DNA of 64,000 nt, taken from NCBI GenBank assembly GCA_963764805.1, contig CAVXUB010000002.1:769028-833027 (forward strand). Direction: 5' to 3'. Numbering within the stretch: position 1 is the first letter of the stretch; every line of letters begins with the position of its first letter. The DNA is from an uncultured Actinomycetota bacterium. GTDB taxonomy: Bacteria > Actinomycetota > Acidimicrobiia > Acidimicrobiales > Bog-793. The notes below the pieces were generated by a model. That model ran no database searches. It saw only the letters and a program-made list of their open reading frames with translations, and had not been told where the DNA came from. Positions 9,097-46,484 of this stretch are shown piece by piece. The translations under genes were made by a program, and so were the position numbers.

Positions 9097-9188
9097 AGCC
9101 GGGTTGCAGCCCGGCCGGCAGCTGGCTGAAGCCGGCCGGCAGCTGGGCTGAAGCCGGCCGGCAGCTGGCCTGAAGCCGGCCAGCAACT
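9091..9188. repeat. Tandem array (4 units of 21-33 bp) of GGCTGAAGCCGGCCGGCAGCT beginning at the ogt stop codon
   Basis: Units at 9091 (33 bp, with an insertion), 9124, 9145 and 9167. Each contains the palindromic core GCCGGCCGGC. Confidence 0.9.
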
Positions 9189-9284
9189 GTGGGCAGCGCG
9201 GCACGGACCCAGCCGCGAAACCAGCCCTCCCCCCTCGAGCCCACCGGCAAGGCCCCGTAGTGCCAGCAGGTAGCGTCTTCGCCT

Positions 9285-12845: not shown

Positions 12846-13691
12846 TCAGCGGTTGCGTTTGAAGAGGCTGCCGAAACGACTCTTGGGAGGACCCTCATCG
12901 TCCTCGGCATCGTCGGCATCGTCGGCATCGTCGGCGTCCTCGGCGTCCGCGGCGTCCGCGGCGTCCGCGGCGTCCTCGCCGCCATAATCGTCCTCGTCGT
13001 CCTCGTCGTCCGCGAGATCGCCTTCCTCGGCGTCGCCGTCGCCTTGGTCGTCCTCTTCGCCAACTTCGTCCTCTTCGTCCTCGTCGACGTCCTCGTCGTC
13101 CGCGTCGTCCACCTCGTCGTCGTCCTCGTCGTACTCCTCATCGTCCTCGAAGTCTTCGTCGTCCTCGAAGTCCTCGTCGTCCTCAGCCACGTCGCCCATG
13201 TAGCTGCGATCGCTCAGCGCGGCGCGGATGTCCTCCTCGCTCGGGGCCGGGTCGCTACCGTCGCCGAGGTCGCTGGCGGGGATCCGCCGCAGCAGGGAGG
13301 TGATCTTCCCGGGTCGGCTGATGTCGAACGGCAAGCCCGCCTTGCGCAGCAGCCTGCGACCGGTCGGCGTCAACCCGATCCTGTACGTGACGAATTCGAT
13401 GAGGCGGGCGTCCACGAGCAACCCGAGCGCACGGCTGAATTCGAGCGGGTCGGGTGAGGTGTGCGTCAGTTGCTTGTAGGCGCCGATGATCTCGCCGAGC
13501 ATCGCCAGCTCGCCCCCGTTGGCGATCTCGATGGCGAGCAGCGCATTGGTCTCGTCCCGGCTGAACTGCGACTCGATCGGCACGGACGGGACGCTATCAG
13601 CGGCCCTGGCAGCCACCCGGACGGGACCCTCGAGGGAACTGCGAGGGAACCCGGCGGAGAGTTTCGAGGTGGCAGAGGTCTGCTCGCGCAC
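12846..13691 (-). CDS. Hypothetical protein: about 150-aa N-terminal (possible wHTH) domain plus a poly-Asp/Glu C-terminal tail of about 120 aa
   Basis: The ORF starts 10 nt after the ATPase stop on the same strand. The tail reads AEDDEDFEDDEDFEDDEEYDEDDDEVDDADDEDVDEDEEDE... and ends in a basic PPKSRFGSLFKRNR. The exact start is uncertain. Confidence 0.7.
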   Translation of the reverse strand: MREQTSATSKLSAGFPRSSLEGPVRVAARAADSVPSVPIESQFSRDETNALLAIEIANGGELAMLGEIIGAYKQLTHTSPDPLEFSRALGLLVDARLIEFVTYRIGLTPTGRRLLRKAGLPFDISRPGKITSLLRRIPASDLGDGSDPAPSEEDIRAALSDRSYMGDVAEDDEDFEDDEDFEDDEEYDEDDDEVDDADDEDVDEDEEDEVGEEDDQGDGDAEEGDLADDEDDEDDYGGEDAADAADAADAEDADDADDADDAEDDEGPPKSRFGSLFKRNR

Positions 13692-27818: not shown

Positions 27819-27941
27819 GCGGCTGATGACGGTCTCATCGCGGAGGCGTGGAGACAATCATGCTCGCTGAAGGTCCCCCGATCGCCGGCCCTCGAGCCGC
27901 CGAAGCCAAGAGGAAGCCTTCCTGACAAGAGGAGATCGACG

Positions 27942-28247
27942 ATGCCGGCAGCCCTGAAGGTGACGCACAAGGCAATCGGGGCGGAGGTCCGTCGCCGCGC
28001 TTACGAAGTCGTGGTTGATGGTCGCGGTGCCGGGTCCGTCGAGATGAACGGCACGATCGAGATACCAATCGAACCTGGACGTCACACCGTGCAGGTTCGC
28101 GTCGGCCGGGACTCCAGCCGCAGCGAGGCTTTCGAGGCTGCCGACGGCGAGACCGTCTCCTTCCGATGCACCGGGAAGCGGTTCTTGCCGATCTTCCTTG
28201 CGTCTTTCGTCGTTCCCAGCTTGGCGCTCAAGCTCAAGCGGGAGTAG
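27942..28247 (+). CDS. Small hypothetical protein with a C-terminal hydrophobic anchor
   Basis: GAGGAG precedes ATG 27942. 101 aa, ending in FLPIFLASFVVPSLAL. Confidence 0.45.
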   Translation: MPAALKVTHKAIGAEVRRRAYEVVVDGRGAGSVEMNGTIEIPIEPGRHTVQVRVGRDSSRSEAFEAADGETVSFRCTGKRFLPIFLASFVVPSLALKLKRE

Positions 28248-28280
28248 TCACGTCCGATCAACCTGGGAGGGTCGTCGGAT

Positions 28281-28363
28281 TGTGACGTTGGGACCAAATT
28301 ACGAGGGAGCTATGTGTGCAATTGCGTCCAAGTGTCATTCCAAGATTGCGTCCAAGTGTCACA
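28281..28363. repeat. About 83-bp inverted-repeat unit: one forward and two reverse copies of the TGTGAC..GGAC(G/C)CAAT motif
   Basis: Forward copy TGTGACGTTGGGACCAAAT at 28281. Reverse copies ATTGCGTCCAAGTGTCA at 28321 and 28345. The termini read TGTGAC...GTCACA. Confidence 0.7.
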
Positions 28364-28511
28364 TCGAACGACGGTTCGAAGTGCTACGCCGAACGGCAAC
28401 CGCACGAGCTCCGGGCGGGAGCATCGTCACGGTTCCGTGTGCACCGATTGGCGACTGCAAGGCTGAACGGCCTCTCGCCGGCCGATACCCACCAGAGAGC
28501 CGGCGTTGGCG

Positions 28512-29453
28512 TCAGAACCGGACCGCCAGGTCTCGTGCTCGGTGGCAGACATCCTCAAAGGATGGTCGGATCGCCTCCGGGTAGCAGACTGCGTCGAGCA
28601 TCCGCAGGTACCCCTCATCGATACGCCCTGCCAAGTCGGGATCTCTGAAGCAAGCCGAGTTGGCAAACCCCCCATCAGGCACGACAGCACCGCCGTACCA
28701 GCGAGCTGATACCTCAAGGCAGTCAGCGACCACCTCGTCGCGGTTCGTTCCCTCGTCGAGCCACCGCAGTGCCGGCGAGATGTCCTCGTCCCATAGGAAG
28801 TACAGGTCGTAGAAGTGCCTGGCCTCCGTGTCACTGAGCTTCCGCCGCTCATCGTCGAGGAGCTTGGTGCCGATGCCGTCGACTGCGAACAACTTCTCGA
28901 CCATCGTCCGCGCCGGATGCAGCACGGCAATCTCGAATGACGTCAGGTCCTCGTAGGCACTCTCGCCGAGGACACCGCCCATGAGCGAGACGATCGTCTT
29001 GCGCTCGGAAGGCTTCGGCCCACCCCGTATGCCTGGTTCGACAACAATCTGCCGCCGCATGCCCTTCGCTCTCGGCAGGTCGGGCAGCAGCATGTACTCG
29101 ACGAACATCCGCCTGGAGAGCCCGACGTTCTGGACGTCGACGTCAGCAGGGCCGTTGAGAACCTCAGACGCCACGCCCTCGACGTCGTCGAGAAGTGCCT
29201 CGGTCTCGTCGCCCTCCTCGCTCAGGAGCAACAGGTCGATGTCCTCGGAGAAGCGCTCGACGAGCCGGTAGGCCTTCGACAGACTCGTGCCCCCCTTGAA
29301 GAGGAACATCCCGTCGAGGCGGCCCACCAGCTCGCGGAGCACTTCGGTGACCCAGTAGTCCTTCTCGACCTGGCGCTCGGCGATGCCGAGCTCAGCGGCC
29401 GCAGCGATGACGCCGGCTCGGAAGTCCTTGAGTGCACTACGGAGGAGCGTCAC
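28512..29453 (-). CDS. AbiEii/AbiGii-family nucleotidyltransferase toxin (DUF1814)
   Basis: GTG 29453 overlaps the AbiEi stop (TAGTG). Family-typical N-terminus KDYWVTEVLRELVG...FLFKGGTSLSKAY...RFSEDIDL. Confidence 0.85.
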   Translation of the reverse strand: MTLLRSALKDFRAGVIAAAAELGIAERQVEKDYWVTEVLRELVGRLDGMFLFKGGTSLSKAYRLVERFSEDIDLLLLSEEGDETEALLDDVEGVASEVLNGPADVDVQNVGLSRRMFVEYMLLPDLPRAKGMRRQIVVEPGIRGGPKPSERKTIVSLMGGVLGESAYEDLTSFEIAVLHPARTMVEKLFAVDGIGTKLLDDERRKLSDTEARHFYDLYFLWDEDISPALRWLDEGTNRDEVVADCLEVSARWYGGAVVPDGGFANSACFRDPDLAGRIDEGYLRMLDAVCYPEAIRPSFEDVCHRARDLAVRF

Positions 29454-30142
29454 TAGACCGACCCCGCCGTCATCCCGAACGCGACGGGCGACCGCGGCGC
29501 CCACACCCGCGCCGCGGCATCGTGCTCGCCGGCCGCCTCGAGAACTCCCCGGAGGCGCCCGCGCACGGCGGCGGGCTCGTAACGGGCAGCTCGCACGAGT
29601 CGGTCGACGCGCACGGCCCCCGAGCTCACCAGCTCGATGACGCGACGCTGAGCCGAGTCGTCGTCGAGCTCGACTACGCGGTCCCAGTCGCCGAGCACTT
29701 CCAGCAACGCCACTTCGACCGGCAGCAGCCCAGCAGCAATCCGGCCGCGCCTTCCGGACCGGTCGACGAAACGGACCTGAGACACCGGGCGGGGAACACG
29801 ATGAGGCACGGCGACGATGTCGCGCGCCGGGACTTGAGTTGTGAGGCCCAGGTCGTTGGCGGCACTCAGCCCCGCCGGCCCGACGCCTTTGCCGCCGACC
29901 ACAGCCCTCACGATCGCCGATGTCGGCGGCCGGGACATCCCGAAAGGCGTCTGCCTGCCTCGCCAGTACAGCCCGCGCCTGACCCTTCGCAGGTCACCCT
30001 TGTTGGCAAGCTGAGCGAGCGCGCGGTCGACCTGAATCGGATCACCAAAGTCATCGAGGTCGCGTGCTGTCCAGAAGCGGTCGGCCGACCCCTTCGCCAC
30101 CTTGGCCCGAACCCTGCCCGTCACTCCGATCGTCTTCGCCAT
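29453..30142 (-). CDS. AbiEi-family type IV antitoxin / transcriptional regulator
   Basis: The N-terminal wHTH-like segment is FWTARDLDDFGDPIQVDRALAQLANKGDLRRVRRGLY. It lies immediately upstream of, and is coupled to, the AbiEii gene. Confidence 0.8.
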   Translation of the reverse strand: MAKTIGVTGRVRAKVAKGSADRFWTARDLDDFGDPIQVDRALAQLANKGDLRRVRRGLYWRGRQTPFGMSRPPTSAIVRAVVGGKGVGPAGLSAANDLGLTTQVPARDIVAVPHRVPRPVSQVRFVDRSGRRGRIAAGLLPVEVALLEVLGDWDRVVELDDDSAQRRVIELVSSGAVRVDRLVRAARYEPAAVRGRLRGVLEAAGEHDAAARVWAPRSPVAFGMTAGSV

Positions 30143-30697
30143 CCTTCACTCCCAGCTACATGATACCCGAGCCGAATAACGCGCCACGCGAACTGTGGCC
30201 GGTGCGGTGTCGACGCTATCGTCGGCCGACCCCTGCCGCCGCCTGCGACACCAAGAACATAAGTGCAGCAGCCGACGGGAAGGGGACCTCAAGATGGGCG
30301 AGAAGGTCTACGTGCTGGTCGAGCCGGCATACAGCCCGAGTTGTCGGGACCTTACGCGACCGTCTCGGAGTTCGAGACAGCCTTCCTCCGCGGTATTTGT
30401 GGCCACGGTAGGTGCCGACGGCGGCCTCGAGGTCTATTCGGTGTCCGGGCCTTTCGCCGAGGATCTCGAGACCTTGGGGACGGGCCGCGTTGTCGCCTCT
30501 CTAGCTATCTCGCCGGGGGGCACGCCCGGATCGCCAGCGTCGTCAACCCTGGCGAGACAGACCGGATCTGTGTGTTCTGCTGGCACGATCGTCTCGCATG
30601 ACGCAGGTCGGGGCGGCGCGACGCGCAGCGGAGCTGCGGGACCAGGAGGGTGGACGGCACGCTCAGCTGGTCGAGGTCAGCGCCCGTATCGCGTTCG

Positions 30698-31495
30698 TCA
30701 CAGACCCTTGGGCTTCAACCCGTTGGCCATGCAGTAGGCGACGATGGCGTTGTCGAGCAGCTTGCTCGAGGATGTCCGCCATCCGCCACCGACCAGCCGG
30801 GAGGGCTTGGCGGCGCGGGCGAGGTAGGCGAACGACCCATACGCCGTCGTCAGGATCTTTGTCTGCCGATCCTGCGGATCGATGGGCCACCACCCGAAGA
30901 ACGCTCCCGTAAAGCGCCGGTCCATGGGTGGGACAAGATCGGGCAGGAGGTGGTGCAGCGTCTTGGTGCCCGGGACGATCAGCGACTTGTTGTCGACGAT
31001 GCCCAGTCCGCTGATGAGTCGGTCGATCTTGCTGACGACGTCGGTGATGTCGAGCGAGTCCTCTTCGATGCTCAGACCGGCCAGAGCTGCTACTTCCGGC
31101 TCGCAAGCTTGCAGGCGCTGGCGAAATAGCTCGATCGGAACGAGTCTCGACGCTCTCCGTCCGATCCCCCAGAGCCCGAGGGTCTCGTACAAGTAGCCAA
31201 TGAAGACCGGGTCCGCGATGGCAAGAGACACCGAACCCAGTTCCCGGCGACGGTCGATCGTCCGGCGATGGGACTCATACTGACCGTCACGACGGAATGG
31301 CACCTGTGCGTCGTACTCACCGACCAGGGCGTCGAAGCTGTCGATCACCTCCTCGACTCTCTGACGGAGGGAAACCTGTGGTTGGTCCTCTCTGGGCCGT
31401 CGGGTAGCCCGATGCGGGATCGCGGGTCTCTCCGCTCGAACCGCCTCGCGCTCTTCGTCGCTGAGGAGCCGGTACCAACCGTGCTCGGTTCGCAT
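30698..31495 (-). CDS. Hypothetical protein (265 aa), no family recognised
   Basis: An internal ATG at 31495 in the 833-aa composite ORF. The sequence from MRTEHGWYRLLSDEEREAV to ...NAIVAYCMANGLKPKGL has ordinary protein-like composition. The text upstream of it is out-of-frame over an IS remnant. Confidence 0.6.
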   Translation of the reverse strand: MRTEHGWYRLLSDEEREAVRAERPAIPHRATRRPREDQPQVSLRQRVEEVIDSFDALVGEYDAQVPFRRDGQYESHRRTIDRRRELGSVSLAIADPVFIGYLYETLGLWGIGRRASRLVPIELFRQRLQACEPEVAALAGLSIEEDSLDITDVVSKIDRLISGLGIVDNKSLIVPGTKTLHHLLPDLVPPMDRRFTGAFFGWWPIDPQDRQTKILTTAYGSFAYLARAAKPSRLVGGGWRTSSSKLLDNAIVAYCMANGLKPKGL

Positions 31496-31569
31496 GAGCA
31501 CCTTGCCGTGGGGCTGGCAGGCCCACGACCTGCGTTTAGTGTCATCCCTTGGACTACCGGCTGAATCGA

Positions 31570-31929
31570 GCTTCGGTACATCGTCGAGATCGAGCAGAGG
31601 TAGGTGCCGTCGTCGAGCAGCCGGGCCCAGATCTGCGCCGGGGCGAGGTCGCAGTACTCCTCCGAACGCAGCAGCGAGAGGACGTGCTGGCGCTCGACCT
31701 CGCTGAGCGCGTTGGGAGGAGCTGGCCGCGGCACCGGCGGGCCGAGCACGGGCGGCCGGCGCCGGCGGTAGCGCGTCGCCCGCGAGGCGCCGAGCAGCTC
31801 GCAGGCTTGCTTGGTCGAGGTCACCGCCTCGAGGCCGGTGAAGTGCTTGTCGGTCACGGCTTGTGCTTCGGGTCCGTCCGCCGCCAAGATCTCCAAAGAC
31901 CCGATCCCCGGCTGGCAGAACCACCGCAC
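31570..31929 (-). mobile_element. N-terminal fragment of an rve-type (IS3/IS481 superfamily) transposase, truncated after ...LCSISTMYR
   Basis: An HTH (KQACELLGASRATRYRRRR) and the conserved LSEVERQHVLSLLRSEEYCDLAPAQIWARLLDDGTYLCSISTMYR block are present. No DDE catalytic core follows. Confidence 0.7.
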
Positions 31930-32785
31930 CGACCTGGGACTCCATGTCGGCCGCGATCAGACGGCCGAGCTCCTGCGCCGAGGTCGGCCCCGGCTGGCTC
32001 CCATGCTTGCGCTGGAGTCGGCGCACTGCAGCTGGACCGACCTTGAAGAACGATCGGAGGGTCGCCAGGTCCTTGGCGACAGCGCGCGACAGCACGGCAT
32101 CCGAGGCCGTCCGTTCGCTAATGATGCTGTCGAGCTGGCTGAGGAGCCGGCTGCTGGCGCCCGAGAGGAACGAGTGGAGGGATCGGCGCACCTCCTCCGC
32201 GAGCACGACCTCGGTCCCGGCGCCCTTGATGACGCTGGCGGGCACGGTCAGCCGCATACCAGCCCGTCGTCCTGGCCCGATCGGCTGGGCGAGCACCAGG
32301 AGCCGGATCAAGGCCCTGAAGGCGTCGGGTGTCGACGCCGCGAAAGGGTAGGCGTACATGATCTCGACAACATGGTCCGGGCTGGACGCGAGGCGCACCC
32401 GGGTCTTGGTCCCACGATCAACCAGAGCGATGGCGAGGTGCTCGCTCGGCGCGGCATGGGTGAAGTTGAAGGGCGGGCGGAGGCCACGCAACAGCTCGGT
32501 CTCTCGGTCGATGGCATGGGCTTCGCTCGGGTGCTCCTCCCATCGGATGGCAACCACCTGGTTGAGCATGTCGAGCAGCCGCTGGTCATCGCCCGGCCCG
32601 ATCCGGGCGTAGGACCGGAGCCGGGTCCGAAGGTTCTTAGCCTTGCCGACGTACAACAGGACACCATCAGGGCCGAGCATGAGGTAGACGCCGGGGCCGG
32701 CTGGGACCTTGCCGAAGAAATCGGCCCCCAGGCGTTCGGTCAGGGGCGCGGCCGCCGCCGGCGTCCCGTCTGCTGATCGCCCCAT
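31930..32785 (-). pseudogene. GIY-YIG nuclease-domain protein, 3-prime end apparently lost at the IS fragment
   Basis: ATG 32785. The GIY-YIG motif is GPGVYLMLGPDGVLLYVGKAKNLRTRLRSY...E. Protein-like sequence stops where the transposase fragment begins. Confidence 0.65.
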
Positions 32786-32874
32786 CGGTCCAACGCTAAC
32801 GACCCAGAACCAGCCCGGGCAGGGCGGGCGCCGGCGCGCGAAGGTGATGGGAACAACGCGATTGGGGGAGCACC

Positions 32875-33727
32875 ATGGCTGTCGAGGTACGCAACGACGT
32901 CCAGTTCGGAACTGGTGGGGGTCGACCGCTTCGGGCCGACCTGTACCTGCCGACTCCGCGGTCGGAGGGCGCTGCGCTGGTGATCCTGCTCCACGGCGGC
33001 GGCTGGCGGGGAGGCAGCCGGGGGATGGTCGAGGGCTACGGCCGGCGCCTGGCCGAGGCTGGCCTGGTCTGTATGGCCCCCGAGTACCGCCTGACCCCCG
33101 AGTCACCCTGGCCGGCCCAGATCCACGACACCAAGGCCGCCATCCGCTGGGCCCGCCGGCATGCCCCCGAGCTGGGCGCCGACACGACCAAACTGGCAAT
33201 CCTGGGTCGGTCAGCCGGCGGTCACCTGGCCCTGCTGGCGGCAGGGACCCCGGGGTTGGACGAGTACGAGGGCGACGGCGGTGAGCCGGGAGTCGACACC
33301 TCGGTGGCGGCCGCCATCGGCATCTTTCCGCCGACCCTCATGTACTCAGGTGCTCGCCCCCGGGGCGGAACCCCGGCATCGGCTCTGATGGGCGACGCCG
33401 CCACGGAAGAGTCGGCTCGTCTGGCCAGCCCGGTGGCCCACGTCGACGATGTGTACCCGCCCACCTTCCTGCTGCACGGGACCGAGGACCGCGTCGGTAC
33501 CGCCGTCGGCCAGCATGGTCATGTACGACGCCCTGGTGGCGGCCGGCCGCCCAGTGGAGCTGCACATGTACGCCGGCCAGCCCCATGGATTTGCCGGAGG
33601 GCCGGACTTCATCGACCTCTGTGCAGCCGAGATCATCCACTTCCTCGGCCGGGTCTTCGCCGGCCTGGGCCAGGCGGAAGAGCCATCTGTGGTCCGGGAC
33701 TCGGCGTGGCCCTTGGTCGGGCGATAG
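32875..33727 (+). CDS. Alpha/beta hydrolase (esterase/lipase, HGGGW type); 1-bp insertion at about 33496
   Basis: Oxyanion motif LHGGGW and nucleophile elbow GRSAGG. The C-terminal part (VPPSASMVMYDALVAAGRPVELHMYAGQPHGF) lies in the +1 frame. The span length is 3n+1. Confidence 0.8.
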
Positions 33728-34140
33728 CACGGCTGCCAGGGCCCGCCACCGACTTGGCCAGCGGCACCACCTAACCGACGTGGACACGGGTGTCGCAATT
33801 AGCGGACTGAACACCAGCCCCGAGACCCACCCGGTAGCCGTCGATCTGCGCTTCTCGGCGGTCTCGGTCGCGTCGGCCGTAGCGTGTACCAGATCAGTAG
33901 GTCTGAGCGCGTTAAGACCCACATCTTGGCGGCCGACCGCCCGGGTCGAACCGGCCTCATGCGTGCACGAGGGTTTCGAGAGCAACTTGAGCGCGACCTG
34001 GTAGCGCTCCCTTCGAGGGCCCACCGGCGTCGAGCATGATCCGGCGGAGCTTGCGGAGGTTCTCGATGGAAAGACCGCCGACCAATACAATCAGAGTCGC
34101 AGATGTTCACCCCGGTTTCTGCCTTGCGAATGCTGACTTG

Positions 34141-36597
34141 TCAGCGACGGAGGAGGTCGGCGACTGCGGTGAGCGGGTCGAGTTGGGAAGCGTCCGCGAC
34201 GCCGGCGCGGTACTCGCCCTCCTCGCGCAGCGCAGGGGTGAGGGTGCGCTCGTAGCGGACACGTTCGGCGTGCAGCATCCTGAAGCCGATCTGCTGCTCG
34301 ATCCGCTCGGCGAGTGTCCACAGCCGGCCCGCTGTGGTCGCGTCGTCGTTCTGTGCCGCCACGCAGGCGAGGCCGGCGAGGCAGTATGCCTGCAGCCGCA
34401 CGTCGTCCTCTTCTGGCGCGAGTGCGAGTGCCTCGTGGTAGTAGCGCTCCGCGGATGGCAGGTCCCCCTTGTCGAGGTAGAGGTCACCGAGACTGTGGAG
34501 CAGGGCGGAGACACTGCCGAGACCGTGCTCGCGCCGGCTCTCGATGGAACGTTGATACAGCTCGGCCGATCGCTCGAACTCGCCGGTGTCTCGGAGTCCC
34601 TCGGCGAGGTAGAAGACCGCACGGGCGATCCCGTCTACGTCGTCGAGTCGCTCGTAGATGTCCAGTGCCTGTTCTGACCATTTGAGGGTCTCCGCGGGGG
34701 AGCCGGCGACAAACTCGACGCCACCGAGGCGCAAGAGCACGTCTGCCTCCTTGCGCTCGTCCCCGACTTCTCGATAGAGCGTCAGCGCCTCGGTCAGCGC
34801 AGTCCGCGCCGGGGCGGGCGTGTCGGTGTAAACGAGGGTGATGCCGAGACCGGCGAGCACGTCGGCTCGCTGGCTGGGTGAGAACACGCTCGGATCCGCC
34901 AGCGCGCGCTCGTACCAGCGCCTGAGCTCGCTGTTACGGCCGGCTCCCAACCAGGTGTAGAACACTGAGTCCGCGAGCGGCAAGCCCGCCGCGACGTCGT
35001 GCTCGAGCGCCCAAGCGAGAGCGAGGCTGACATTGCCAGCGTCCTGCCGCAGGCGGGTCAGAGCGTCCGCCCGCCCCGCGCCTTGGTGGCCGGCGGCGAT
35101 GCCAAGCGCGAAGTACCAGCGGGCGTGCCGACCCCGGACGTCGTCTTGGTCTTCGCTCGCGTCGAGTTGCTCGAGCGCGTATTCGCGGGTTGTCTCCAAG
35201 AGGAAGAAGCGGCCGCTATCACCCTCGCGGAGCAGGCTCTTATCGACGAGCGACTGCAAGTCGTCAAGCTTCGCGTCACAGATCCGTTCGGCGGCCTCGA
35301 GCTCAAAACTGCCGACGAAGACCCCCAGCCTGGCGAACAAACGCTGCTCGGGCTCGCTCAACAGGTCATAGCTCCAGGCGATCGTGGCGCGCATCGTCGC
35401 CTGACGCGCGGGAAGGTCGCGCCCGCCGCCCGCCAGCAGCGGCAGCCGCTGCTCCAGCCTGGTCAGGAGCTGGCCCTCGGAGAGAACTTTGACGCGCGTC
35501 GCTGCGAGCTCGAGCGCCAGCGGCAGACGATCGAGGCGAGCACAGATCGCATCGACGGCCGCGCCCGGCTCAAAGCCCGGTTTGACCTGTCGCGCGCGGG
35601 CGGTGAACAACTCGACAGCGCCCGCATGTGATAGAGGCGGAACGGGGTACTCTTGTTCACCCGAGATCGCAAGCCTCTCGCGGCTGGTGGCGATCGCCGC
35701 ACACCCGGGCGCAGACGCGAGCAACTCGCCGACCAGGGGAGCGGCATCGATCACCTGCTCCAGGTTGTCAAGGACCAGCAGCAGCGACCGATGGCCTAGA
35801 TAAGTCGCGAGATCCTCACCTGCACCCACCGCGTTTGCGATCGTCGGCACCACGACCGCTGGGTCGGTAGCCACCGCCAGAGGTACCCACCACACCCCGT
35901 CGGCATAACGGTCCGCGAGCTCCGCTGCGAGCGCGAGCGCCAGCCGCGTCTTCCCTGTACCCCCCGTCCCGGTCAACGTCACGAGGCGGTGACTGTCGGC
36001 CAGCTCTAGCAGCTCCGCGAGTTCTTGCTCACGACCGAGCAGTGGAGTTGCCTGCACCGGCAGATGAACATGGCGCAGGGTCCTCAGCGGCGGGAACGTC
36101 GCGTCACCCAGCTGAAACAGGCGCTCCGGCGCGGCCAGGTCCTTGAGCCGGTGCTCCCCGAGGTCCTGCAGCGCGACGTCCGCAAGCGCCCGGGTCTGCG
36201 CCGAGACGAGGATCTGCCCGCCGTGCGCAGCCGAGGAGATCCGCGCCGCCTTGTGAACGGCCATCCCGAAATAGTCGCCTCCGACGAGAAGGACCTCACC
36301 CGAATGGACCCCCATGCGAACGCGCAACGGCCCATCCGCGAGCGCCGACTGCATCTCCCCTGCAGCCGCCAGACCTTCGCCTGCGCTCTGGAACACGAAG
36401 AAGAACGCATCGCCCTCCGTCCCCATCTCCACCCCGCCGTGGGCATCCGCGACAAAACGAAGCCGTTCACGATGCGCCATCAATACGCTGGCATATCGCT
36501 CGGGACCGAGCTCGTCCAACAAGCGCGTCGACCCCTCCACGTCGGTGAACAGCATCGTGACCGTGCCACTCGGAAGATGTCGCACCCCGGACTCCAC
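34141..36597 (-). CDS. Class III adenylate/guanylate cyclase domain / NB-ARC (STAND) ATPase / TPR protein
   Basis: The N-terminal cyclase is VTMLFTDVEGSTRL...GTEGDAFFFVF...VRMGVHSGEV. The Walker A is LTGTGGTGKTRLAL and Walker B LLLVLDN. TPR-like repeats occupy the C-terminal 300 aa. Confidence 0.9.
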   Translation of the reverse strand: MESGVRHLPSGTVTMLFTDVEGSTRLLDELGPERYASVLMAHRERLRFVADAHGGVEMGTEGDAFFFVFQSAGEGLAAAGEMQSALADGPLRVRMGVHSGEVLLVGGDYFGMAVHKAARISSAAHGGQILVSAQTRALADVALQDLGEHRLKDLAAPERLFQLGDATFPPLRTLRHVHLPVQATPLLGREQELAELLELADSHRLVTLTGTGGTGKTRLALALAAELADRYADGVWWVPLAVATDPAVVVPTIANAVGAGEDLATYLGHRSLLLVLDNLEQVIDAAPLVGELLASAPGCAAIATSRERLAISGEQEYPVPPLSHAGAVELFTARARQVKPGFEPGAAVDAICARLDRLPLALELAATRVKVLSEGQLLTRLEQRLPLLAGGGRDLPARQATMRATIAWSYDLLSEPEQRLFARLGVFVGSFELEAAERICDAKLDDLQSLVDKSLLREGDSGRFFLLETTREYALEQLDASEDQDDVRGRHARWYFALGIAAGHQGAGRADALTRLRQDAGNVSLALAWALEHDVAAGLPLADSVFYTWLGAGRNSELRRWYERALADPSVFSPSQRADVLAGLGITLVYTDTPAPARTALTEALTLYREVGDERKEADVLLRLGGVEFVAGSPAETLKWSEQALDIYERLDDVDGIARAVFYLAEGLRDTGEFERSAELYQRSIESRREHGLGSVSALLHSLGDLYLDKGDLPSAERYYHEALALAPEEDDVRLQAYCLAGLACVAAQNDDATTAGRLWTLAERIEQQIGFRMLHAERVRYERTLTPALREEGEYRAGVADASQLDPLTAVADLLRR

Positions 36598-37127
36598 GAC
36601 CCAGACGCTATCCCGCCCACGCCCGCAGGCTCAGCGCCGATGCTCTCACACCACTCAACCCAGGGGACGAGCACTCCCCCGCCGTGTGAACCCCGGCCAC
36701 CGCGGCTGGGTAGTGCTGGTTCACGTCGGGCTCGGTCATTGGTCCTCTGTTCGCGCCGCCTCGTTCCATTCCGATTCCATTCGCGGGAGAAGTGTCCATC
36801 GGCGCATAGTGTTCCATCTTGCGCTCAGGCGGGTGGCTCCAGGCCGTGAACTCCCTCCGCCCGAGTCGGCAGGGAGGATGTAGGTAGAGCTGGTTGGGGC
36901 ATCCACCATGACGGTTGTGGTGGGGGCGTACGGTCAGCTTCGCCGAGGTCCTGGTCTGACTTGGAAAGAAGGTTGACGCTGGCTGTCTGAAAGGAACTTG
37001 GTCGGCCAGGTCCTCGGTGGTGGCACTGCCGGTTGAGATGCGGCGGATCGCCCTGCGGGAACAGGACGATCCACCGTGCCGCACGAGGCGGCGGTGCCAT
37101 CCCGAACCGATGACATCAAAGGTAGGG

Positions 37128-37367
37128 ATGGCAGTGACAATCGTAGATACCTCGCGCCCGATCACCGGCGGCGTCGACACTCACCTCGATGTGCACGTGG
37201 CCACCGCGCTGGATGGCATCGGCGGCCTGTTGGGGGTGGAGCAGTTCAAGACCACCCCGGCGGGCAACAAGGCGCTGCTGGTGTGGCTGCGCAGCTTCGG
37301 CGACCCGGTCCGGGTCGGTGTGGAGGGGACCGGCTCGTATGGGGCCGGCCTGGCAGCCCGAAGATGA
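37128..37367 (+). mobile_element. IS110-family transposase, N-terminal 79-aa fragment
   Basis: ITGGVDTHLDVHVATALD...FKTTPAGNKALLVWLRSFGDPVRVGVEGTGSYGAGLA matches the DEDD N-terminal domain. The ORF stops right after it and no C-terminal domain follows. Confidence 0.8.
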
Positions 37368-37371
37368 GAGG

Positions 37372-37474
37372 CCGCCGCATCGGCGATGGTGGACTTGCCA
37401 GTGCACTGGAGGCCCGTGACGAGCACTAGTACCCGGCGGACAGGGCCGTCTCCATGGTCGGTCGGTTCGCCCAT
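37372..37474 (-). pseudogene. About 35-codon remnant of a P-loop kinase-like gene abutting the IS110 fragment
   Basis: MGEPTDHGDGPVRRVLVLVTGLQCTGKSTIADAAA (Walker A), after which the sequence runs into the IS110 remnant. Confidence 0.4.
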
Positions 37475-37712
37475 CCGGGGCAACCTACCGATGTCTGTCG
37501 AGGCGTGCTCCGAACAACAGCGCATCAGGTTCTCCTCGGTTGTCGTGCGAGGACGCGAAATCGGCGATCCGCGCTAAACGCTGGCGATGCCTAGTGAGAG
37601 CAATCTCAGCCAACGCTCGCAGAGCCTCGTCTCAACAACGCGCGTCTGGGCCGGGGGTCGCCTTCAGAACCCTTCAGTCGGGGGTACACACGGCCGTCCC
37701 AACCAACGACAG

Positions 37713-37976
37713 TCAGGCTGAGCCGATGACCGAACCGAACTGGAGGGTATCTAACGTCACGCCGGGCGCCTCGGCACCCTCGGGAGGCGCGACCGCTCGG
37801 GCCTGCTCCTCGGTCTCAAACACCGCGATCGAGACCCCGTGGGCGTCATCGACGGCGACGAAATAGGCGCCGACGAATCCGGGGGCTCCCTTCATCATTG
37901 GTATGACCTCCTCAGCGAGGCCCCGCTCCGCCTCGGCCAGGTCAGTGATATTGGCGTGGATCACAGTGGCGTGCAT
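37713..37976 (-). CDS. Small ABM/Dabb-like (antibiotic biosynthesis monooxygenase fold) protein
   Basis: AAGGAG precedes ATG 37976. 87 aa, with the pattern GFVGAYFVAVDDAHGVSIAVFETEEQA. Confidence 0.6.
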   Translation of the reverse strand: MHATVIHANITDLAEAERGLAEEVIPMMKGAPGFVGAYFVAVDDAHGVSIAVFETEEQARAVAPPEGAEAPGVTLDTLQFGSVIGSA

Positions 37977-38212
37977 GCCCAATCTCCTTGGTGCGCTGTC
38001 GACCTTGCGACGTTGGCCGGGGTTCAACCTGACGATTGCGGCTGGGGTGTAGCGCGACAGATTATTCCATCTCGCGCATATGCCGGGCGATCCGCAAGGT
38101 GCGGCCTGGGCGCGGAGTCGGCGATTCGAGCGATGCGCCGGCTTTGTGCTGGCTCAGCTCATTCGAGCACAACACCGTCTGGGGTTGGTCTCACCGGTGA
38201 TACGCTCATGTC

Positions 38213-38449
38213 ATGAGTGAGGTATCCATCCGGGACTTGCGCAACCACGGGGGCGAGGTCATCAAGCGCGTGGAACGCGGCGAGCGGCTCACAGTCACAC
38301 GCGACGGCCGCCAGGTGGCGGAACTGCGGCCCCTCGGTCCGCTCCCCGTCAAGGCCGCAGTCCTCATCGAACGCTGGTCCCGACTGCCTCGACTCGATCC
38401 CGCATGCCTACGCCGAGACCTCGACCAGGTCATCGACTCAAGCCCGTGA
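38213..38449 (+). CDS. Phd/YefM-type (VapB-like) antitoxin
   Basis: The typical N-terminus is MSEVSIRDLRNHGGEVIKRVERGERLTVTRDGRQVAEL. There is a GTGA overlap with the following PIN fragment. Confidence 0.8.
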   Translation: MSEVSIRDLRNHGGEVIKRVERGERLTVTRDGRQVAELRPLGPLPVKAAVLIERWSRLPRLDPACLRRDLDQVIDSSP

Positions 38450-38562
38450 CCGCGCTCGGGTTGCTGGATACATCGACCGTCGTTCTACTGGGCCGCCTCC
38501 AGGCAGAGGACCTGCCCGAAGAACCTCTGATCAGCGCAGTCACCCTGGCGGAGCTGTTCTGA
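38446..38562 (+). pseudogene. VapC (PIN-domain) toxin, truncated after 38 codons
   Basis: VTALGLLDTSTVVLLGRLQAEDLPEEPLISAVTLAELF is a PIN N-terminus with the first acidic residue. A stop follows and no further PIN sequence is seen downstream. Confidence 0.7.
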
Positions 38563-38847
38563 CACCGAGCAGTCCGACGAGGCGGCCGGCTGTGAGATCG
38601 CAATCCTGGTGCATCGAAACGAGCTCAACGAGGTCTACGTCGGCATCCGCATCACAGGGCCGGTGGCGTACGACGTCACCGCTCTAATCCTCGACTGCGT
38701 CCCTGCTGTCGCCGACCGGAGCGGTTGGGGCCTCGACTCGATGCCCGATCGCTCAGCGGCGGCCGGCGAGTTGGTCTGGTCGAACCTGCTCGACGGAGCG
38801 GTCCTCGATGGTCTCCTCGGCGAAGGCTGACTAGTAGCCGGGAGCTC

Positions 38848-39676
38848 GTGTTCGGAAAAGCCGTCGGACCTGCAAGGATTGAACGGGTGGTCGAAAACGC
38901 GTGGGATCAGGTCGGCCGGGCGCTCGAGGTGCTCGCCGCCGGCTTAGCACCGTTTGTCGGGCAGCGGATGTCCGACGTCGAGAGGCGGGCTCTCAAAGAC
39001 CCGAGGTTCCAGCTGAAAGTCATGATCGAGGCGTGGAACGCCTTCAGCCCTCCGCTGACGAAGATGGAGCGCAACCTGGTTTTTGAGCTACGCGAGACCG
39101 GCAACCGGTGGGCCCACTACGAGCCGCTTACCGATGACGACGTCGATCGAGCGCTGGACTCCGTCGAACGACTGCTGGCCGCGGCCGGCGCTCCGGAGGC
39201 CGCCGTGGTTCGGGAGGCCAAAGCCGAGCTGCGCCGTAGCCGTTACGTACACGACAGTCAACACGGGGACAGCGGTGCCCCTCCCGATCCGCACTCCTCA
39301 CCGTCGCGGGGCCAACCTCACGACGCCGAGGGACATGAAGCGGCCGTCGCCTCAAGGGCAGGCAGTTTCTCGCCCGGAGGGTCTGCTGCGCCGTCTCGGC
39401 GTAGTGGCGGAATGGCGCTGGGCAGAGAGAACTGGCGGCTGATCCTTGCGGCCGCGCGAAGCGCTGACCGCGGCAGGCCAGACCCCGTTCACCCGCATCG
39501 GCGTCTATGAGTGGATCTGGCGGCGTTATCCACGCGAGGAGCATGACCGACCCAGCCTCGATCCGACCTTTCAAGGCATGGTCAGGAACGCCACCGGCGG
39601 GCCGAGGAGTGCCGGAGGGACACCGCTGCTTCGGGTTGACCGAGGACTCTACGTGCTGGCTGACGGCCAGCGGTGA
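38848..39676 (+). pseudogene. Swt1-like HEPN domain protein with a C-terminal wHTH-like region, disrupted by a frame change and an in-frame TGA at 39443-39445
   Basis: The HEPN block is FELRETGNRWAHYEPLTDDDVDRALDSVERLLAAAGAPEAA (R-x4-H motif). The C-terminal protein-like text (FTRIGVYEWIWRRYPREEHDRP...LLRVDRGLYVLADGQR) lies in another frame, beyond a TGA. Confidence 0.65.
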
Positions 39677-39720
39677 CGACCACCGGTCCGTGCCCTGCCG
39701 ACGACGCGAGGCGTAACCAC

Positions 39721-40221
39721 TCAAGGCGAGAGGTCCGGCGACGATGAAGGGAGGTCGGGAAGAGGAACGGGCTGTTCCGCTGACATCTCATTCTCCGCTG
39801 CAATTCTGAGAAAGTCCTTCGTCAACTCTTCGGCCGGGTGAGTCCCACTCTCCACTTGCGCCAATCGATAGAGAAGCTGGCGACAGGCCAGAGCGAGGAA
39901 CAGGACCTCTCGCCGATGAAGAGGAGCATCTGTCAAGGAGCCGACGACCTTGCGCCCCTCGTGCCAGTCCTGGCGAGCTGTCAGGGCCCCGATCTCATTC
40001 CACACATTTCGTGAGACGTTGAGTGTCGCCTGGGCCGCCGCACTTCCGCCGAAATGGGCTTCGAGAACCTCACGCTCCCAATATGCAAGGGTCGTAATCG
40101 GTTCTCTTCTAAGCAGACCACGACTGAGACGAAGCCGCACCTGACGCACGATTTCGCTGGACGTCGGGGTCGCTCCCGCCGTCGGCGAGATTCGCTCAAC
40201 TGGCGGTGGGCCGCCGTGCAT
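39721..40221 (-). CDS. Hypothetical protein Y (140-166 aa), no family recognised
   Basis: An ORF with protein-like composition (LAYWEREVLEAHFGGSAAAQATLNVSRNVWNEIGALTARQDWHEG...). The start is either ATG 40221 or GTG about 40149. Confidence 0.45.
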   Translation of the reverse strand: MHGGPPPVERISPTAGATPTSSEIVRQVRLRLSRGLLRREPITTLAYWEREVLEAHFGGSAAAQATLNVSRNVWNEIGALTARQDWHEGRKVVGSLTDAPLHRREVLFLALACRQLLYRLAQVESGTHPAEELTKDFLRIAAENEMSAEQPVPLPDLPSSSPDLSP

Positions 40222-40889
40222 CCTGATCGGATCCGAGCGGGGTGTCGGGATCGATCTGCCACAGGGCGCCGCCGGGAGCGCCGGTGCACTGAGAACGCCG
40301 GTATTGCAAACCGAAACCGTATCCGCCCAGGGTCTCGGCCTCGAATCGCCACGCTGCTGCTTCCTCCTCGAACCGCGGACCGGGCAGCCCGGACGTCGTC
40401 GAACTCGACTTCGGGCCGGGCGACTACGGCCCTACCCGAAATCTCACAACTGAAAGTCGGCAGGGCGACGGACTGGGTTGGCAGCACCTCGGACAGCCGA
40501 CGGGGGGACGGTACGTCGAGAATCGCATAGTGCAGCTCGTCGACCCTGTACTGCGTCGGCTCGGTGTGGAGCAGGGCTGGCGAAGTCGCCGCCAGTTCGC
40601 CGAGTCCGTACGTCCGGTAACAGCGGCTGAACAGGAACGGGAAGTCATAGTCCTGGACCACGGCCTTCTGGGCCTCGTCCGTCTCCAGACCGTTCTCCGT
40701 ACCGGGCCAGGTCACCCACGTAGCGCCTCCGTCGTCGCTGTACTCGATGACAACCCGGTTCGCGATGTAGAGCACTCTGTGAGGCACATGGCCAGCGACA
40801 ATCAAAGGTCTCCCGGCATACTCGCTACGCGCGTGCATCCCTCGGAGATGATCGATACGACGCCACTCCAGGGCGTCTTCGTCCGTCAT
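40197..40889 (-). CDS. Hypothetical protein X (about 230 aa), reconstructed across a frame change near 40375
   Basis: MTDEDALEWRRIDHLRGMHARSEYAGRPLIVAGH...EVEFDDVRAARSA continues as protein-like text in another frame (FEEEAAAWRFEAETLGGYGFGLQYRRSQCTGAPGGALWQIDPDTPLGSDQDARRPTAS, TGA at 40197-40199). The listed frame turns Arg-rich beyond that point. Confidence 0.5.
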
Positions 40890-41131
40890 GGTCTTCACCC
40901 CAGAGATCACTGACCGGTGTACCTCTGCTGTCACGTGGTCTCCTGCGCGATGGATCGAAATCGGGCAAACGTTGCCGGTGGCGGCACTGCCAGTCTCCTC
41001 GAGTCGGCCGACGGCGGATATCGGGGAGGTCGGTCGGGTGTGCGAGCTGGTTCGCTCGGTAACCCGACCTCACCTCACGTCACCCAAGCGGCGCCGCCCT
41101 GTCGCTCGCGGCCCGGATTCCCGCGTCGGCT

Positions 41132-41218
41132 TGTGACATTTCGACACAACCATGTGACATTGGGCGCAATCTTTGTGACATTTCGACGCAACCGTTGTGA
41201 CATTCGGACGCAATTTCC
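41132..41218. repeat. Four head-to-tail 21-22 bp repeats TGTGACATT(n3-4)G(A/C)(C/G)(A/G)CAA(C/T)
   Basis: TGTGACAT occurs at 41132, 41153, 41174 and 41196. The array lies between the nrdJ stop (41245) and the start of gene X (40889). Confidence 0.85.
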
Positions 41219-41244
41219 TGGGACACGCTGGTGCAACTGCACAG

Positions 41245-44200
41245 CTATGAGCACCCGCTAGTGGCGCCACAGCTGGGACAGGCGTAGCAGGAGCCGGCCC
41301 GCTGCATGAGGTTGCCGCAGGCGTAGCAGAACGGCGCATCCCTCGCCTCGGTCCGAGCCAGCGGCTCGTGCGGTCGCGACTGAGCGGCCTCCGTGGAATC
41401 GCCGCCGTGGCCGAAGTGCTCGGTCTCCCGACGGGCGGCCTCCGCAACGTCAGCCTCGTCCAGACCGGGCAGCGTCGGTTGGGTGCGCTCGTGGGTCGAC
41501 AGCACGCCGAGCTCCAACCTCTCGTCGAAGGAGAGGTACTCGAGAGCCAGGCGCCGGAAGATGTAGTCGACCAGGCTGGACGCCAGCCTCAACTCGGCGT
41601 CGTCGGTGATCCCAGCCGGCTCGAAGCGCATGTTCGTGTACTTCCGCACGAACGTCGACAGCGGGACCCCGTGCTGCAGCCCGAGGCTCACCGAGATCGA
41701 GAAGGCATCCATCACGCCCGACAGCGTCGAGCCCTGCTTGGAGACCTTCATGAACACCTCGCCGGGGTGCCCGTCCTCGTACTCGCCGACCGTGACGTAC
41801 CCTTCGCAATCGGCGACGCGGAAGGCGAAGGTCTTCGAGTTCCGGCGGCGAGGAAGGCGCTTGCGGGTTGTGGCGGCCGGCGCATCGACGCCCTTCGCCT
41901 GCAATGCAGCCTCCAGCTCGACGACCTTTGCGGCGAGCTCTGCCTCGCTGGGCGACGGGACGTGGGCGGCGCCCTCAGTCGATCCACCGCCTGCGTCGGC
42001 ACCGGCCCTCTTGGTGGTCGAGAGCGGCTGCGCCACCTTGCAGTTGTCGCGGTAGATGGCGACCGCCTTCAGACCGAGACGCCACGCATCGATGTGCAGT
42101 TGCTCGACCTCGTCGACCGTCAGCTCCTCCGGCACGTTCACCGTCTTGCTGATGGCACCGGAGATGAACGGCTGGGCCGCGCCCATCATCATGATGTGGC
42201 CCTTGTAGTGGATCGTGTTGTCGCCCATCGAGCAGGCGAAGACAGGGAGGTGCTCAGCGCTGAGGTGCGGCGCACCGACGATCGACTTGTGCTCGTCGAT
42301 GTAGGCGACGATCTCGGCGACCTGCTCCTCGTCGTAACCGAGCTTGCGCAGCGCACGAGGCACCGTCTGGTTGACGATCGACATCGTCCCGCCGCCGACC
42401 AGCTTCTTCGTCTTCACCAGCCCGAGATCCGGCTCGATGCCGGTCGTGTCACAGTCCATGAGGAAAGATATGGTTCCGGTCGGCGCCAACACGGTGGCCT
42501 GCGAATTGCGCACGCCGTGGGCCTCGGCGAGCTCGACTGCCGTGTCCCACGACTCCTGTGCCGCCGAGAGCAGAGCCGTCGGGACCTTCTCCTCGTCGAT
42601 GCTGGCGACAGCCGCACGATGCATGCGAAGGACCTCGACCATCGGCTCGGCGTTCTCGTGGAACCCGGCGAAGGCACCCATGCGGGCGGCGGTGCGTGCG
42701 GACGTCGCATAGGCGTGGCCGGTCATCAGGGCCGTGATGGCGGCCGCCCAGGCACGGCCCTCGTCTGAGTCGTAGGGAAGGCCCTCCGCCATCAACAACG
42801 CGCCGAGGTTGGCGTAGCCCAAGCCGAGCTGCCGGAAGCGGCGCGTCGTCTCGGCGAGCTTCTCGGTCGGGTAGTCGGCGTTCCCGACGATGATCTCCTG
42901 AGCCGTGAACACGACCTCCACCGCCGCCTTGAAGCCGTCGACGTCGAACTCGCCCGACTCGTCGAGGAACTTCAGGAGATTCAGGGAGGCGAGATTACAG
43001 GACGAGTTGTCGAGGTGAACGTACTCGGAGCAGTTACGGACGACGATGCCGTCGACGACGTAAGAGTGGTTCCGCGGCTCGGTCAGGTTGAATGTGAGTT
43101 CCACACCGTCGTCGACCCGCTCGACGAGCCGAGCCGTGGTGGCCACCTTGTAGAAACCGAAGCGCCGATCGAGGATCGCTTCGCTCAACAGCGCCGCTTT
43201 GCGGGACAACGAGAAACCGACGTGCTCCGCGAACCTCAGCATCGATGACGAGGTGATCCGCAGGTCGTAGGAAGCAGACCTTCCGTAGGTGACGGACTCA
43301 CCAGTCTTGTTGACGTATGGGAGATGGCCGGAGGCGCTGCCTCCGTGGACTCGATAGACGCGGCTCGCGATCCCGAACGTCGTGAGCAGCCGCTGCACGC
43401 CTTGTAGGAGCTCGCGAGATGTCGATCCGAGACCGACATAGCAGCCCTTGTCGTGGTTCACGACCGCGCAACCGTCGGCGTCGAAGAGCCCCTGCAGGAA
43501 GGACCCGACTATGTCCGCCGGCGCCTGCTCGATGGCCCATGGCACGGTCTTCTCGGGCCCCTTCACCGACTTGATGCCTAGCGCCTCGAGGAACAGCTTG
43601 AACGGCCGGCGCCCCAACCGGAGCTGCGCTGTCCCGTTCCCCTGTTCCGAGATCTTGAGCGGCCGGTCACCATTGATCCACTCCACCAACTCGGCGTGTC
43701 GCGGGAGGATCTCCACACGATCCTCGGCGGAGCCGTAGATGGTCGTCGCGGTGCTGCCGGAGGTGGTCCCGTCGCCGACCAGCCATCCCAGGTAGTGCGC
43801 GAACTCAGGCGTCCACTCCTCGGGTAGACGAACCAGTTCCCCCTTGTCACCTTTGCTGTGGTACTCCGCGACATCCGTGCTGACCGGGATAGTCATGTCG
43901 GCGCGCACAGCGGGCGCCGGCAGATCGAGGACCTTCACCTCGTCGCTCGCCACGAGGTCCCGCGCCTCCACGTAGCCGCGGTTGACCGTGAAGAGCCGGT
44001 GGCCGGGCGTACACCGTAACTGCATGCCGTTGTCGAAGGTCAGGCGGACGATCTCGTTGTAGCCCGTGATCATGAACGCCTCGGGTGACGTCAGGAGAAC
44101 TTGATCGGCGGGATCTTCCACATTGGTGACATCGTGCGTGTACACCGCGAACTCCTCGCCCCCATGGACGCGGGTGAAGAGCTCGCCGAACGCCACCAGG

Positions 44201-46402: not shown

Positions 46403-46484
46403 ACCACTACATCTTGTGGTGCCCGTCCGAACGGCCACCAGATGATGCGGTCGGGGCGTTCATTACACCACTGTAACTACAGAC
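46403..46484 (-). promoter_or_regulatory. Three phased NrdR-box-like palindromes upstream of nrdJ
   Basis: ACCACTACATCTTGTGGT (46403), GCCACCAGATGATGCGGT (46434) and ACCACTGTAACTACAGAC (46467) are spaced 31 and 33 bp apart, 35-115 nt upstream of the ATG. The first matches 13/16 positions of the remembered consensus acaCwAtATaTwGtgt. Confidence 0.45.

Follow-up and report, generated by a model that had tools for sequence, protein, structure and literature searches.

In a 64-kb stretch of DNA from an Acidimicrobiales bacterium (the window), an island of defense, toxin-antitoxin (TA) and decayed genes lies beside nrdJ, the gene for class II ribonucleotide reductase, and both of its edges carry copies of one ~19-bp repeat. 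Do these repeats delimit a single mobile element, and if so of what kind? We report that the island is one element of 12,929 bp (28315-41243), and that this 12.9-kb segment is probably one old DDE transposon, of the Tn7/Tn5053-Tn402/Tn552 kind and no longer autonomous, that sits on the nrdJ stop codon. Its termini, target-site duplication, site arrays, position at nrdJ, cargo and lack of a recombinase gene are read directly from the DNA; the type of transposase and the family to which the element belongs are suggested by the architecture of its ends only.

The repeat, which reads RTTGCGTCSRAWTGTCACA inward from each tip of the element, is a predicted transposase-binding site, and each array of it is capped by a TGTGCA tip. 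Within the window it is confined to 28.28-28.36 kb and 41.13-41.24 kb. A consensus search allowing up to 3 mismatches returned 6 copies where shuffled sequences gave an expectation of 0.07, and a position-weight scan of the 64 kb recovered the seven copies listed in an earlier note on this DNA, all at the coordinates given there, and nothing else; both searches agree with the claim of that note that the motif occurs at just two places. Tandem Repeats Finder reports an array of four copies with a period of 21-22 bp at 41.13 kb, within which half-sites recur every 10-11 bp, bearing out the four head-to-tail copies described at 41132-41218. That description missed a fifth, degenerate copy at 41219-41237 (TGGGACACGCTGGTGCAAC), which is colinear with the terminal copy of the left end and agrees with it at 16 of 25 positions. 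Just 4 of the 127,950 25-mers of the window do as well. The copy is not significant by weight matrix alone and was missed by our first matrix. The resemblance between the loci extends beyond the motif: when reverse-complemented, 28321-28363 can be aligned with copies 2-3 of the array, spacer TCTT(G)G included, and CGTCGGnT stands directly before both 28281 and 41132. These alignments indicate that the two loci share descent. By alignment, the seven sites within the element (two left, five right) and the copy at 28281, outside it, form one family.

The tips of the element flank the motif on its GCAAT side, just outside it, and not on its TGTGACA side. The left terminus (5'-TGTGCA, 28315-28320, + strand) opens the sequence TGTGCAATTGC, and 10 of the 11 positions of this sequence are shared with the reverse-complemented right terminus (TGTGCAGTTGC), the right terminus itself being TGCACA-3' (41238-41243, + strand). 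Next to each tip stands a copy of GCTATG, a perfect 6-bp direct repeat (28309-28314 and 41244-41249), and the inverted repeat of the tips ends exactly where this direct repeat starts. An identical flanking 6-mer has p ~7e-4 at random position pairs, and at most ~1e-2 when freedom in the placement of the tips is allowed for. No att-type direct repeat of at least 8 bp exists at the island edges, and the 6-bp duplication became apparent once the tips had been placed.

Inside the left tip stand the terminal site 1 (28321-28339, + strand) and site 2 (28345-28363, + strand), 24 bp from site 1, so that the left end is laid out as GCTATG / TGTGCA / ATTGCGTCCAAGTGTCATT / ccaag / ATTGCGTCCAAGTGTCACA. 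The right end has as its sites 5 to 2 (41132-41214, - strand) the four copies that run head-to-tail from 41132, 41153, 41174 and 41196, and as its terminal site 1 (41219-41237, - strand) the degenerate copy, in phase and 23-24 bp from site 2. Read as reverse complement, this end runs CATAGC (nrdJ ...TGC TCA TAG C) / TGTGCA / GTTGCACCAGCGTGTCCCA / ggaa / ATTGCGTCCGAATGTCACA / acg / GTTGCGTCGAAATGTCACA / aag / ATTGCGCCCAATGTCACA / tg / GTTGTGTCGAAATGTCACA. The left end is colinear with the reverse complement of the right end over ~53 bp. The ends are thus inverted relative to each other and asymmetric, with two sites on the left and five head-to-tail sites at the nrdJ-proximal right. The earlier note had proposed that one repeat family marks both edges of an accessory island and, among other options, that the repeats are of the multi-site type found at the ends of Tn7, Mu and Tn402, and the inverted tips and the arrays at both ends fit both proposals. 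It had also held that the orientation of the repeats excludes a single transposon spanning the island; that argument took TGTGACA for the outer tip, and when read from the GCAAT side the ends are properly inverted. Nor does its 83-bp unit with TGTGAC...GTCACA termini at the left locus survive, since no direct repeat flanks it and its forward copy lies outside the element.

The nrdJ stop codon (CTA at 41245-41247, TAG on the - strand) falls within the right GCTATG copy, and for this reason the C-terminus of NrdJ (...CGATSGCS) is unchanged and the same as in relatives. The gene itself (41245-46368, - strand) is intact, with conserved synteny, and encodes a product of 1707 aa, 81% identical to its closest match, with two inteins that both bear LAGLIDADG homing-endonuclease domains; in most close relatives nrdJ is intein-free and encodes ~950 aa, and one relative (L151) has a split, intein-bearing version. 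On the 5' side of nrdJ, genes for an AlkZ-like glycosylase, an FGGY kinase, an acyltransferase, an aminotransferase and a ROK protein follow in the same order in the loci of six relatives. As nrdJ and the whole right flank are ordered as in five relatives, nrdJ is resident and no mobile element runs rightwards from the array. Downstream of nrdJ, relatives differ from one another. The left flank consists of a DUF952 gene and a 101-aa open reading frame (ORF101, 27942-28247, + strand), so both flanks are as the earlier note described them. Removal of 28315-41249 leaves ORF101 and nrdJ in a compact convergent arrangement with 61 bp between their stop codons, and we predict that the empty site would read ...TTACGAGGGAGCTATGAGCACCCGCTAG..., with ORF101 convergent on nrdJ. 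A 50%-identical homolog of ORF101 lies 6.4 kb downstream of nrdJ in one relative (L006), where it is co-oriented with nrdJ, unlike the convergent order in the window.

The motif is absent from ~135 kb of the nrdJ regions of relatives, and no independent insertion at nrdJ was found in the loci examined. The window has one insertion, with its many-site end proximal to the stop codon, and a solo site near the old stop that hints at another. This solo site, the copy at 28281 with its flank (CGTCGGAT + TGTGACGTTGGGACCAAAT, 28272-28299, + strand), lies outside the GCTATG duplication, in right-end orientation and 10 bp from the original nrdJ stop, and aligns with the innermost right-end site and its inner flank (CGTCGGCT + TGTGACATTTCGACACAA). 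We take it for the probable stump of a right end left by an earlier insertion at this nrdJ site. For elements of this kind, multiple ends have been discussed as the likely outcome of one element inserting within or beside another (Benler et al., 2021; PMC8649781).

Two further sequences near nrdJ caught our attention. In the closest relative (L003), an 11-mer (TCCGAATGTCA) identical to part of right-end site 2 of the window lies 13 bp past the nrdJ stop; it belongs to a local hairpin (12857-12910) that directly follows the stop and has no partner end, and we regard the match as coincidental or, at best, a very old trace. Upstream of the nrdJ start in the window (46405-46455, - strand), two NrdR-box-like imperfect palindromes, CGCATCATCTGGTGG and CACAAGATGTAGTGG, stand ~31 bp apart. 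They are unrelated to the repeat family, and their position upstream of the gene and different look dispose of the motif as an NrdR operator.

How do these ends compare with those of known elements? Subterminal arrays of ~20-bp inverted repeats are the defining trait of Tn7, Tn5090, Tn5053 and Tn552; such arrays served to delimit 6,549 Tn7-like elements with diverse cargo, including defense and TA genes, and an Actinobacteria-dominated, uncharacterized TnsB clade was described (Benler et al., 2021; PMC8649781). Tn6171 starts with TGT and ends with ACA, carries four overlapping sites at its tns end and three at the other, and lies 25 bp past glmS (PMC8190619). Among ribonucleotide reductase genes, nrdB and nrdD have repeatedly become attachment sites for elements of the Tn7 family (bioRxiv 10.1101/2025.07.27.667033); nrdJ is not named as one in the Tn7-family literature cited here. 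With Tn7-like elements (Tn6171 and the actinobacterial clade 2) the island shares TGT...ACA tips, asymmetric arrays of ~20-bp sites at both ends, contiguous sites at the target-gene end, harmless insertion at the 3' end of a conserved housekeeping gene, defense/TA cargo and a position at a ribonucleotide reductase gene, a type of gene known to serve as attachment site, and, as in Tn7 at glmS, its many-site end faces the gene. It differs from them in having 5 + 2 sites rather than 4 + 3, and in an insertion on the stop codon rather than ~25 bp downstream. The site consensus of Streptomyces clade 2 in the table of Benler et al. (GGTGACAACTAYSGCCGAAA; PMC8649781) has just the GTGACA head in common with the window site, and is a lead rather than evidence. 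Another actinobacterial comparator, on Streptomyces clavuligerus pCLA1 (L152), carries genes for TnsA-like, TnsB, TniB and TniQ proteins, and the TGT that opens its end lies 11 nt beyond the stop of the neighboring gene.

In the Tn5053/Tn402 family, Kamali-Moghaddam and Sundstrom (2001) reportedly described 19-bp repeats, with two copies at one end and four at the opposite end. The tips of this family (Tn5090) likewise begin with TGT, and it is grouped with Tn7 by end architecture (Benler et al., 2021; PMC8649781), but it produces a 5-bp duplication, targets plasmid res sites rather than the 3' end of a gene, and has a repeat (GTGCAGYCGWCTTCTGAAA) unrelated to the window site. Tn552, from Staphylococcus, has subterminal repeat arrays and is listed with Tn7 and Tn5053 (Benler et al., 2021; PMC8649781), but is a Firmicute element of 6.5 kb that targets res sites and has symmetric ends with two sites each. 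The ends of phage Mu and of IS21 also combine several ~20-bp transposase sites with TG...CA tips; Mu differs as a 37-kb phage with a 5-bp duplication, and IS21 as an element of ~2 kb without cargo. The hallmark duplication is 5 bp for Tn7, Tn5053 and Mu, and 6-7 bp for Tn552, whose long ends carry repeated transposase sites and TG tips.

If the island is indeed a transposon of this kind, transposase protomers would have bound the seven sites and paired both ends, and cleavage at the TG/CA tips, followed by joining to target cuts staggered by 6 bp, would have created the GCTATG duplication. Insertion would have taken place in the last bases of nrdJ, with the duplication restoring the stop codon and leaving the enzyme unchanged. 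A TniQ/TnsD-like selector that reads the conserved 3' coding sequence of nrdJ would probably have guided the insertion, which would account for the harmless position and for the many-site end facing the gene. The element would have brought in phage-defense and TA cargo, and later lost its transposition genes while insertion sequences (IS), deletions and frameshifts eroded the cargo.

Several observations weigh against this account. The terminal right-end site is degenerate, and no recognizable TGCACA tip follows the solo site. The duplication must be 6 bp, as a 5-bp reading breaks the TGT/ACA tips, whereas Tn7-like elements duplicate 5 bp. Every open frame of at least 75 aa in 27900-41260 was scanned against Pfam, and none contains an integrase, resolvase, Rep, rve, TniB or TniQ domain; the open frames of the island yielded no match to tnsA, tnsB, tnsC, tniQ or TnsD either, so that, unlike Tn7-like elements, the island has no tnsABC/tniQ left. 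Site-specific targeting of nrdJ is something we infer from a single insertion. For related arrays, we scanned GTDB genomes, JGI metagenomes and IMG/VR with exact patterns and searched plasmids and phages by BLAST, an approach that diverged ends would escape; no related end array or sister element, and with it no cognate transposase, emerged. As no transposase, integrase or Rep gene is left, the element is a dead, non-autonomous relic, and its family is assigned from architecture alone.

Could another kind of mobile element have left the same ends? A lambda-type integrative element moved by a tyrosine recombinase would cast GCTATG as the crossover, TGCACA/TGTGCA as core sites and the 19-bp repeats as arm-type Int/Xis sites, two in attL and five in attR. 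Joined, the ends (GCAACTGCACA-GCTATG-TGTGCAATTGC) do have the geometry of a tyrosine-recombinase core, with inverted 11-bp arms on either side of a 6-bp spacer. Moreover, the arm sites of lambda attP are inverted between arms and tandem on one side, and lambda-type attL/attR resemble the island edges in their tandem binding repeats inside both edges, inverted between edges, and in the short direct repeat at the junctions. However, similarity to an attB half-site is lacking (the reconstructed attB matches the core half-sites at 3/11 and 2/11 positions, counted by hand), the first 19-bp site abuts and overlaps the supposed core without spacing, the tips follow the TG...CA rule of DDE transposons, and the scanned frames contain no integrase gene, Phage_integrase domain or recombinase fragment; we consider this origin unlikely. 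A DDE transposon outside the TnsB/TniA type, for instance a cargo-carrying derivative of an IS21- or IS481-like element, has in its favor that ends of the IS21 family combine repeated transposase-binding motifs, TG...CA tips and 4-8-bp duplications, that IS481 makes 6-bp duplications, and that the island contains an HTH_32 (IS3/IS481-type) fragment. That fragment, however, lies 3 kb in from the ends and looks like a separate IS, such elements measure 1-2.7 kb and seldom carry 12 kb of cargo, and contiguous sites in numbers of 2 vs 5 with the many-site end toward a conserved gene are a Tn7-like trait, all of which makes such a derivative quite improbable.

The remaining alternatives deny that the two loci bound one element. 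The earlier note had suggested remnants of two elements, or an 83-bp miniature inverted-repeat transposable element (MITE) at 28.3 kb alongside an unrelated array of iterons or operators at 41.1 kb, to which a Rep protein or regulator would bind. The 21-22-bp period with half-sites each 10-11 bp would suit such an array, as would its position ~200 bp upstream of a gene on the - strand (gene X, described below). Against it, the flanks of the 83-bp unit (GTCGGAT and TCGAACG) are not duplicated, the unit has no other copy in the window or in the public scans, the 28.3-kb locus lies between convergent gene ends and not in a promoter, the island has no Rep or regulator gene, and the homolog of gene X in a relative (L149) has no array upstream. 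Spacers and flanks common to both loci by descent, together with the inverted tips and the GCTATG duplication, tie the loci into one element and leave this pairing with very little credibility. Just as implausible is a dispersed repeat of 3' intergenic regions, of the repetitive extragenic palindrome (REP) or bacterial interspersed mosaic element (BIME) type or bound by a regulator, with coincidental island boundaries: both loci do lie within ~30 bp of a stop codon, but there are two of them in 64 kb and none in the ~135 kb around nrdJ in relatives, the unit is no palindrome and folds no better than shuffled sequences (z = -0.3 and -1.6), and the tips and duplication would be left unexplained. 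These folding scores, with no Rfam match and no tRNA gene, also set aside readings as an RNA or structured element. CRP sites, DnaA boxes and response-regulator sites, which the TGTGA/GAC spacing might bring to mind, were rejected in turn, as the 19-bp unit, the shared spacers and the structure of the junctions point to descent and not convergence.

The cargo of the putative transposon starts inside the left end with an AbiE pair (28512-30142, - strand) comprising AbiEii (28512-29504; Pfam AbiEii E=2e-26, PADLOC AbiEii E=1.6e-55) and AbiEi (29453-30142; PADLOC AbiEi E=2.8e-75). Decayed cargo follows (30698-34090), including a GIY-YIG remnant embedded in a long open frame, an HTH_32 fragment of IS3-like type (31348-31956, - strand) and an esterase fragment (32848-33771, + strand). 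The long frame (30698-33199, - strand, 833 aa) couples a UvrC-like GIY-YIG domain to ~270 aa of well-formed, unassignable sequence with no stop between them, and is probably a fusion of gene remnants. Next come an 818-aa protein with adenylate/guanylate cyclase, AAA/STAND and TPR regions (34141-36597, - strand), for which a weak PycC-like match was also seen, and a segment (36960-37573) with an N-terminal fragment of an IS110-type transposase (37017-37367, + strand) and a P-loop fragment (37184-37573, - strand), the sole one of the island and kinase-like. A Phd/YefM antitoxin gene (38213-38449), a truncated PIN-like fragment and a Swt1-type HEPN gene (38725-39510) occupy 38213-39510 on the + strand. 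This gene content agrees with the AbiEi/AbiEii, GIY-YIG, IS3- and IS110-type fragments, cyclase-STAND protein, antitoxin (here Phd) and HEPN gene reported earlier; the truncated VapC of that report has no Pfam match, its support being an N-terminal PIN-like fragment recognized by eye. Two truncated IS fragments, several pseudogenes and orphan frames are the signs of decay.

Gene X, the first gene inward from the right end (39721-40934, - strand), is a pseudogene of ~380 aa with two frameshifts; in tblastn its homolog P0122 falls in three frames. A hairpin with 16-nt arms (41032-41069, - strand) lies between it and the right-end sites. P0122 is 68% identical and is encoded beside a conjugative element with type IV secretion and relaxase genes (L149, 10001-11140). 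There, an in-frame TAG replaces a Trp codon, so that gene X is broken in each of the two genomes found to carry it, and the locus shares with the window just the gene X coding region. The product of gene X matched no family, and its AlphaFold model (pLDDT 41) was unusable. There is a slender chance that gene X, standing beside the many-site end, belongs to new transposition or targeting machinery.

The public scans returned a few superficially similar repeats. In GTDB genomes, the two-copy pattern matched twice: once by chance in a coding region, and once in the dnaA-dnaN origin region of an Armatimonadetes metagenome-assembled genome (L001), where dense TGTGAC(T/A)CA repeats in both orientations fill 2440-2680, between the 3' end of a dnaA-like gene and the next frame, which we take to be dnaN by its position alone. 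This cluster, presumably an oriC whose DnaA boxes are unusual, met the motif pattern by chance. In JGI metagenomes, the two-copy pattern retrieved just AT-rich 18-bp satellites and chance single matches; the satellites (L138 4754-5696, L139 615-1166 and L143 1-455) are long, with 25-50 copies of the unit AATGTGACACTTTGACAC, and unrelated to the window despite their superficial resemblance to the motif. In IMG/VR, a three-head pattern was unspecific, and single-copy matches were redundant coding regions and one unrelated palindrome. The array matched nothing when compared by BLAST with plasmids and phages, and a literature search for the motif string gave nothing relevant. The window itself has other tandem arrays, namely GCGGCCGAGGCGGCAACGGAA x4 (96% identity) and CCGGCCGGCAGCTGGGCTGAAG x3.6 at 6077-6160 and 9111-9189, with periods of 21 and 22 bp and located inside or at the ends of long open frames, and a 9-bp x32 array at 12893-13184; none is related to the transposon sites.

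Taken together, a puzzling pair of repeats becomes a cleanly delimited mobile element, of an ordinary type and at an insertion site, nrdJ, that was previously unreported. The present value of a dead relic is mainly for annotation, and the locus shows a route by which a defense/TA island arrived beside an essential gene without harm. If the targeting of nrdJ is real, a third class of ribonucleotide reductase gene would join nrdB and nrdD among Tn7-type attachment sites, and the ends described here would provide sequences with which to find an active, uncharacterized actinobacterial transposon; site-specific systems of such a kind are of interest as insertion tools. More tentatively, the element may represent an uncharacterized lineage of the Tn7 superfamily in Acidimicrobiia that makes 6-bp duplications, uses the nrdJ stop region as a dedicated attachment site and has hit this site at least twice, a possibility we rate as less likely than not. 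Were it true, the 3' end of nrdJ would be a landing pad for defense islands.

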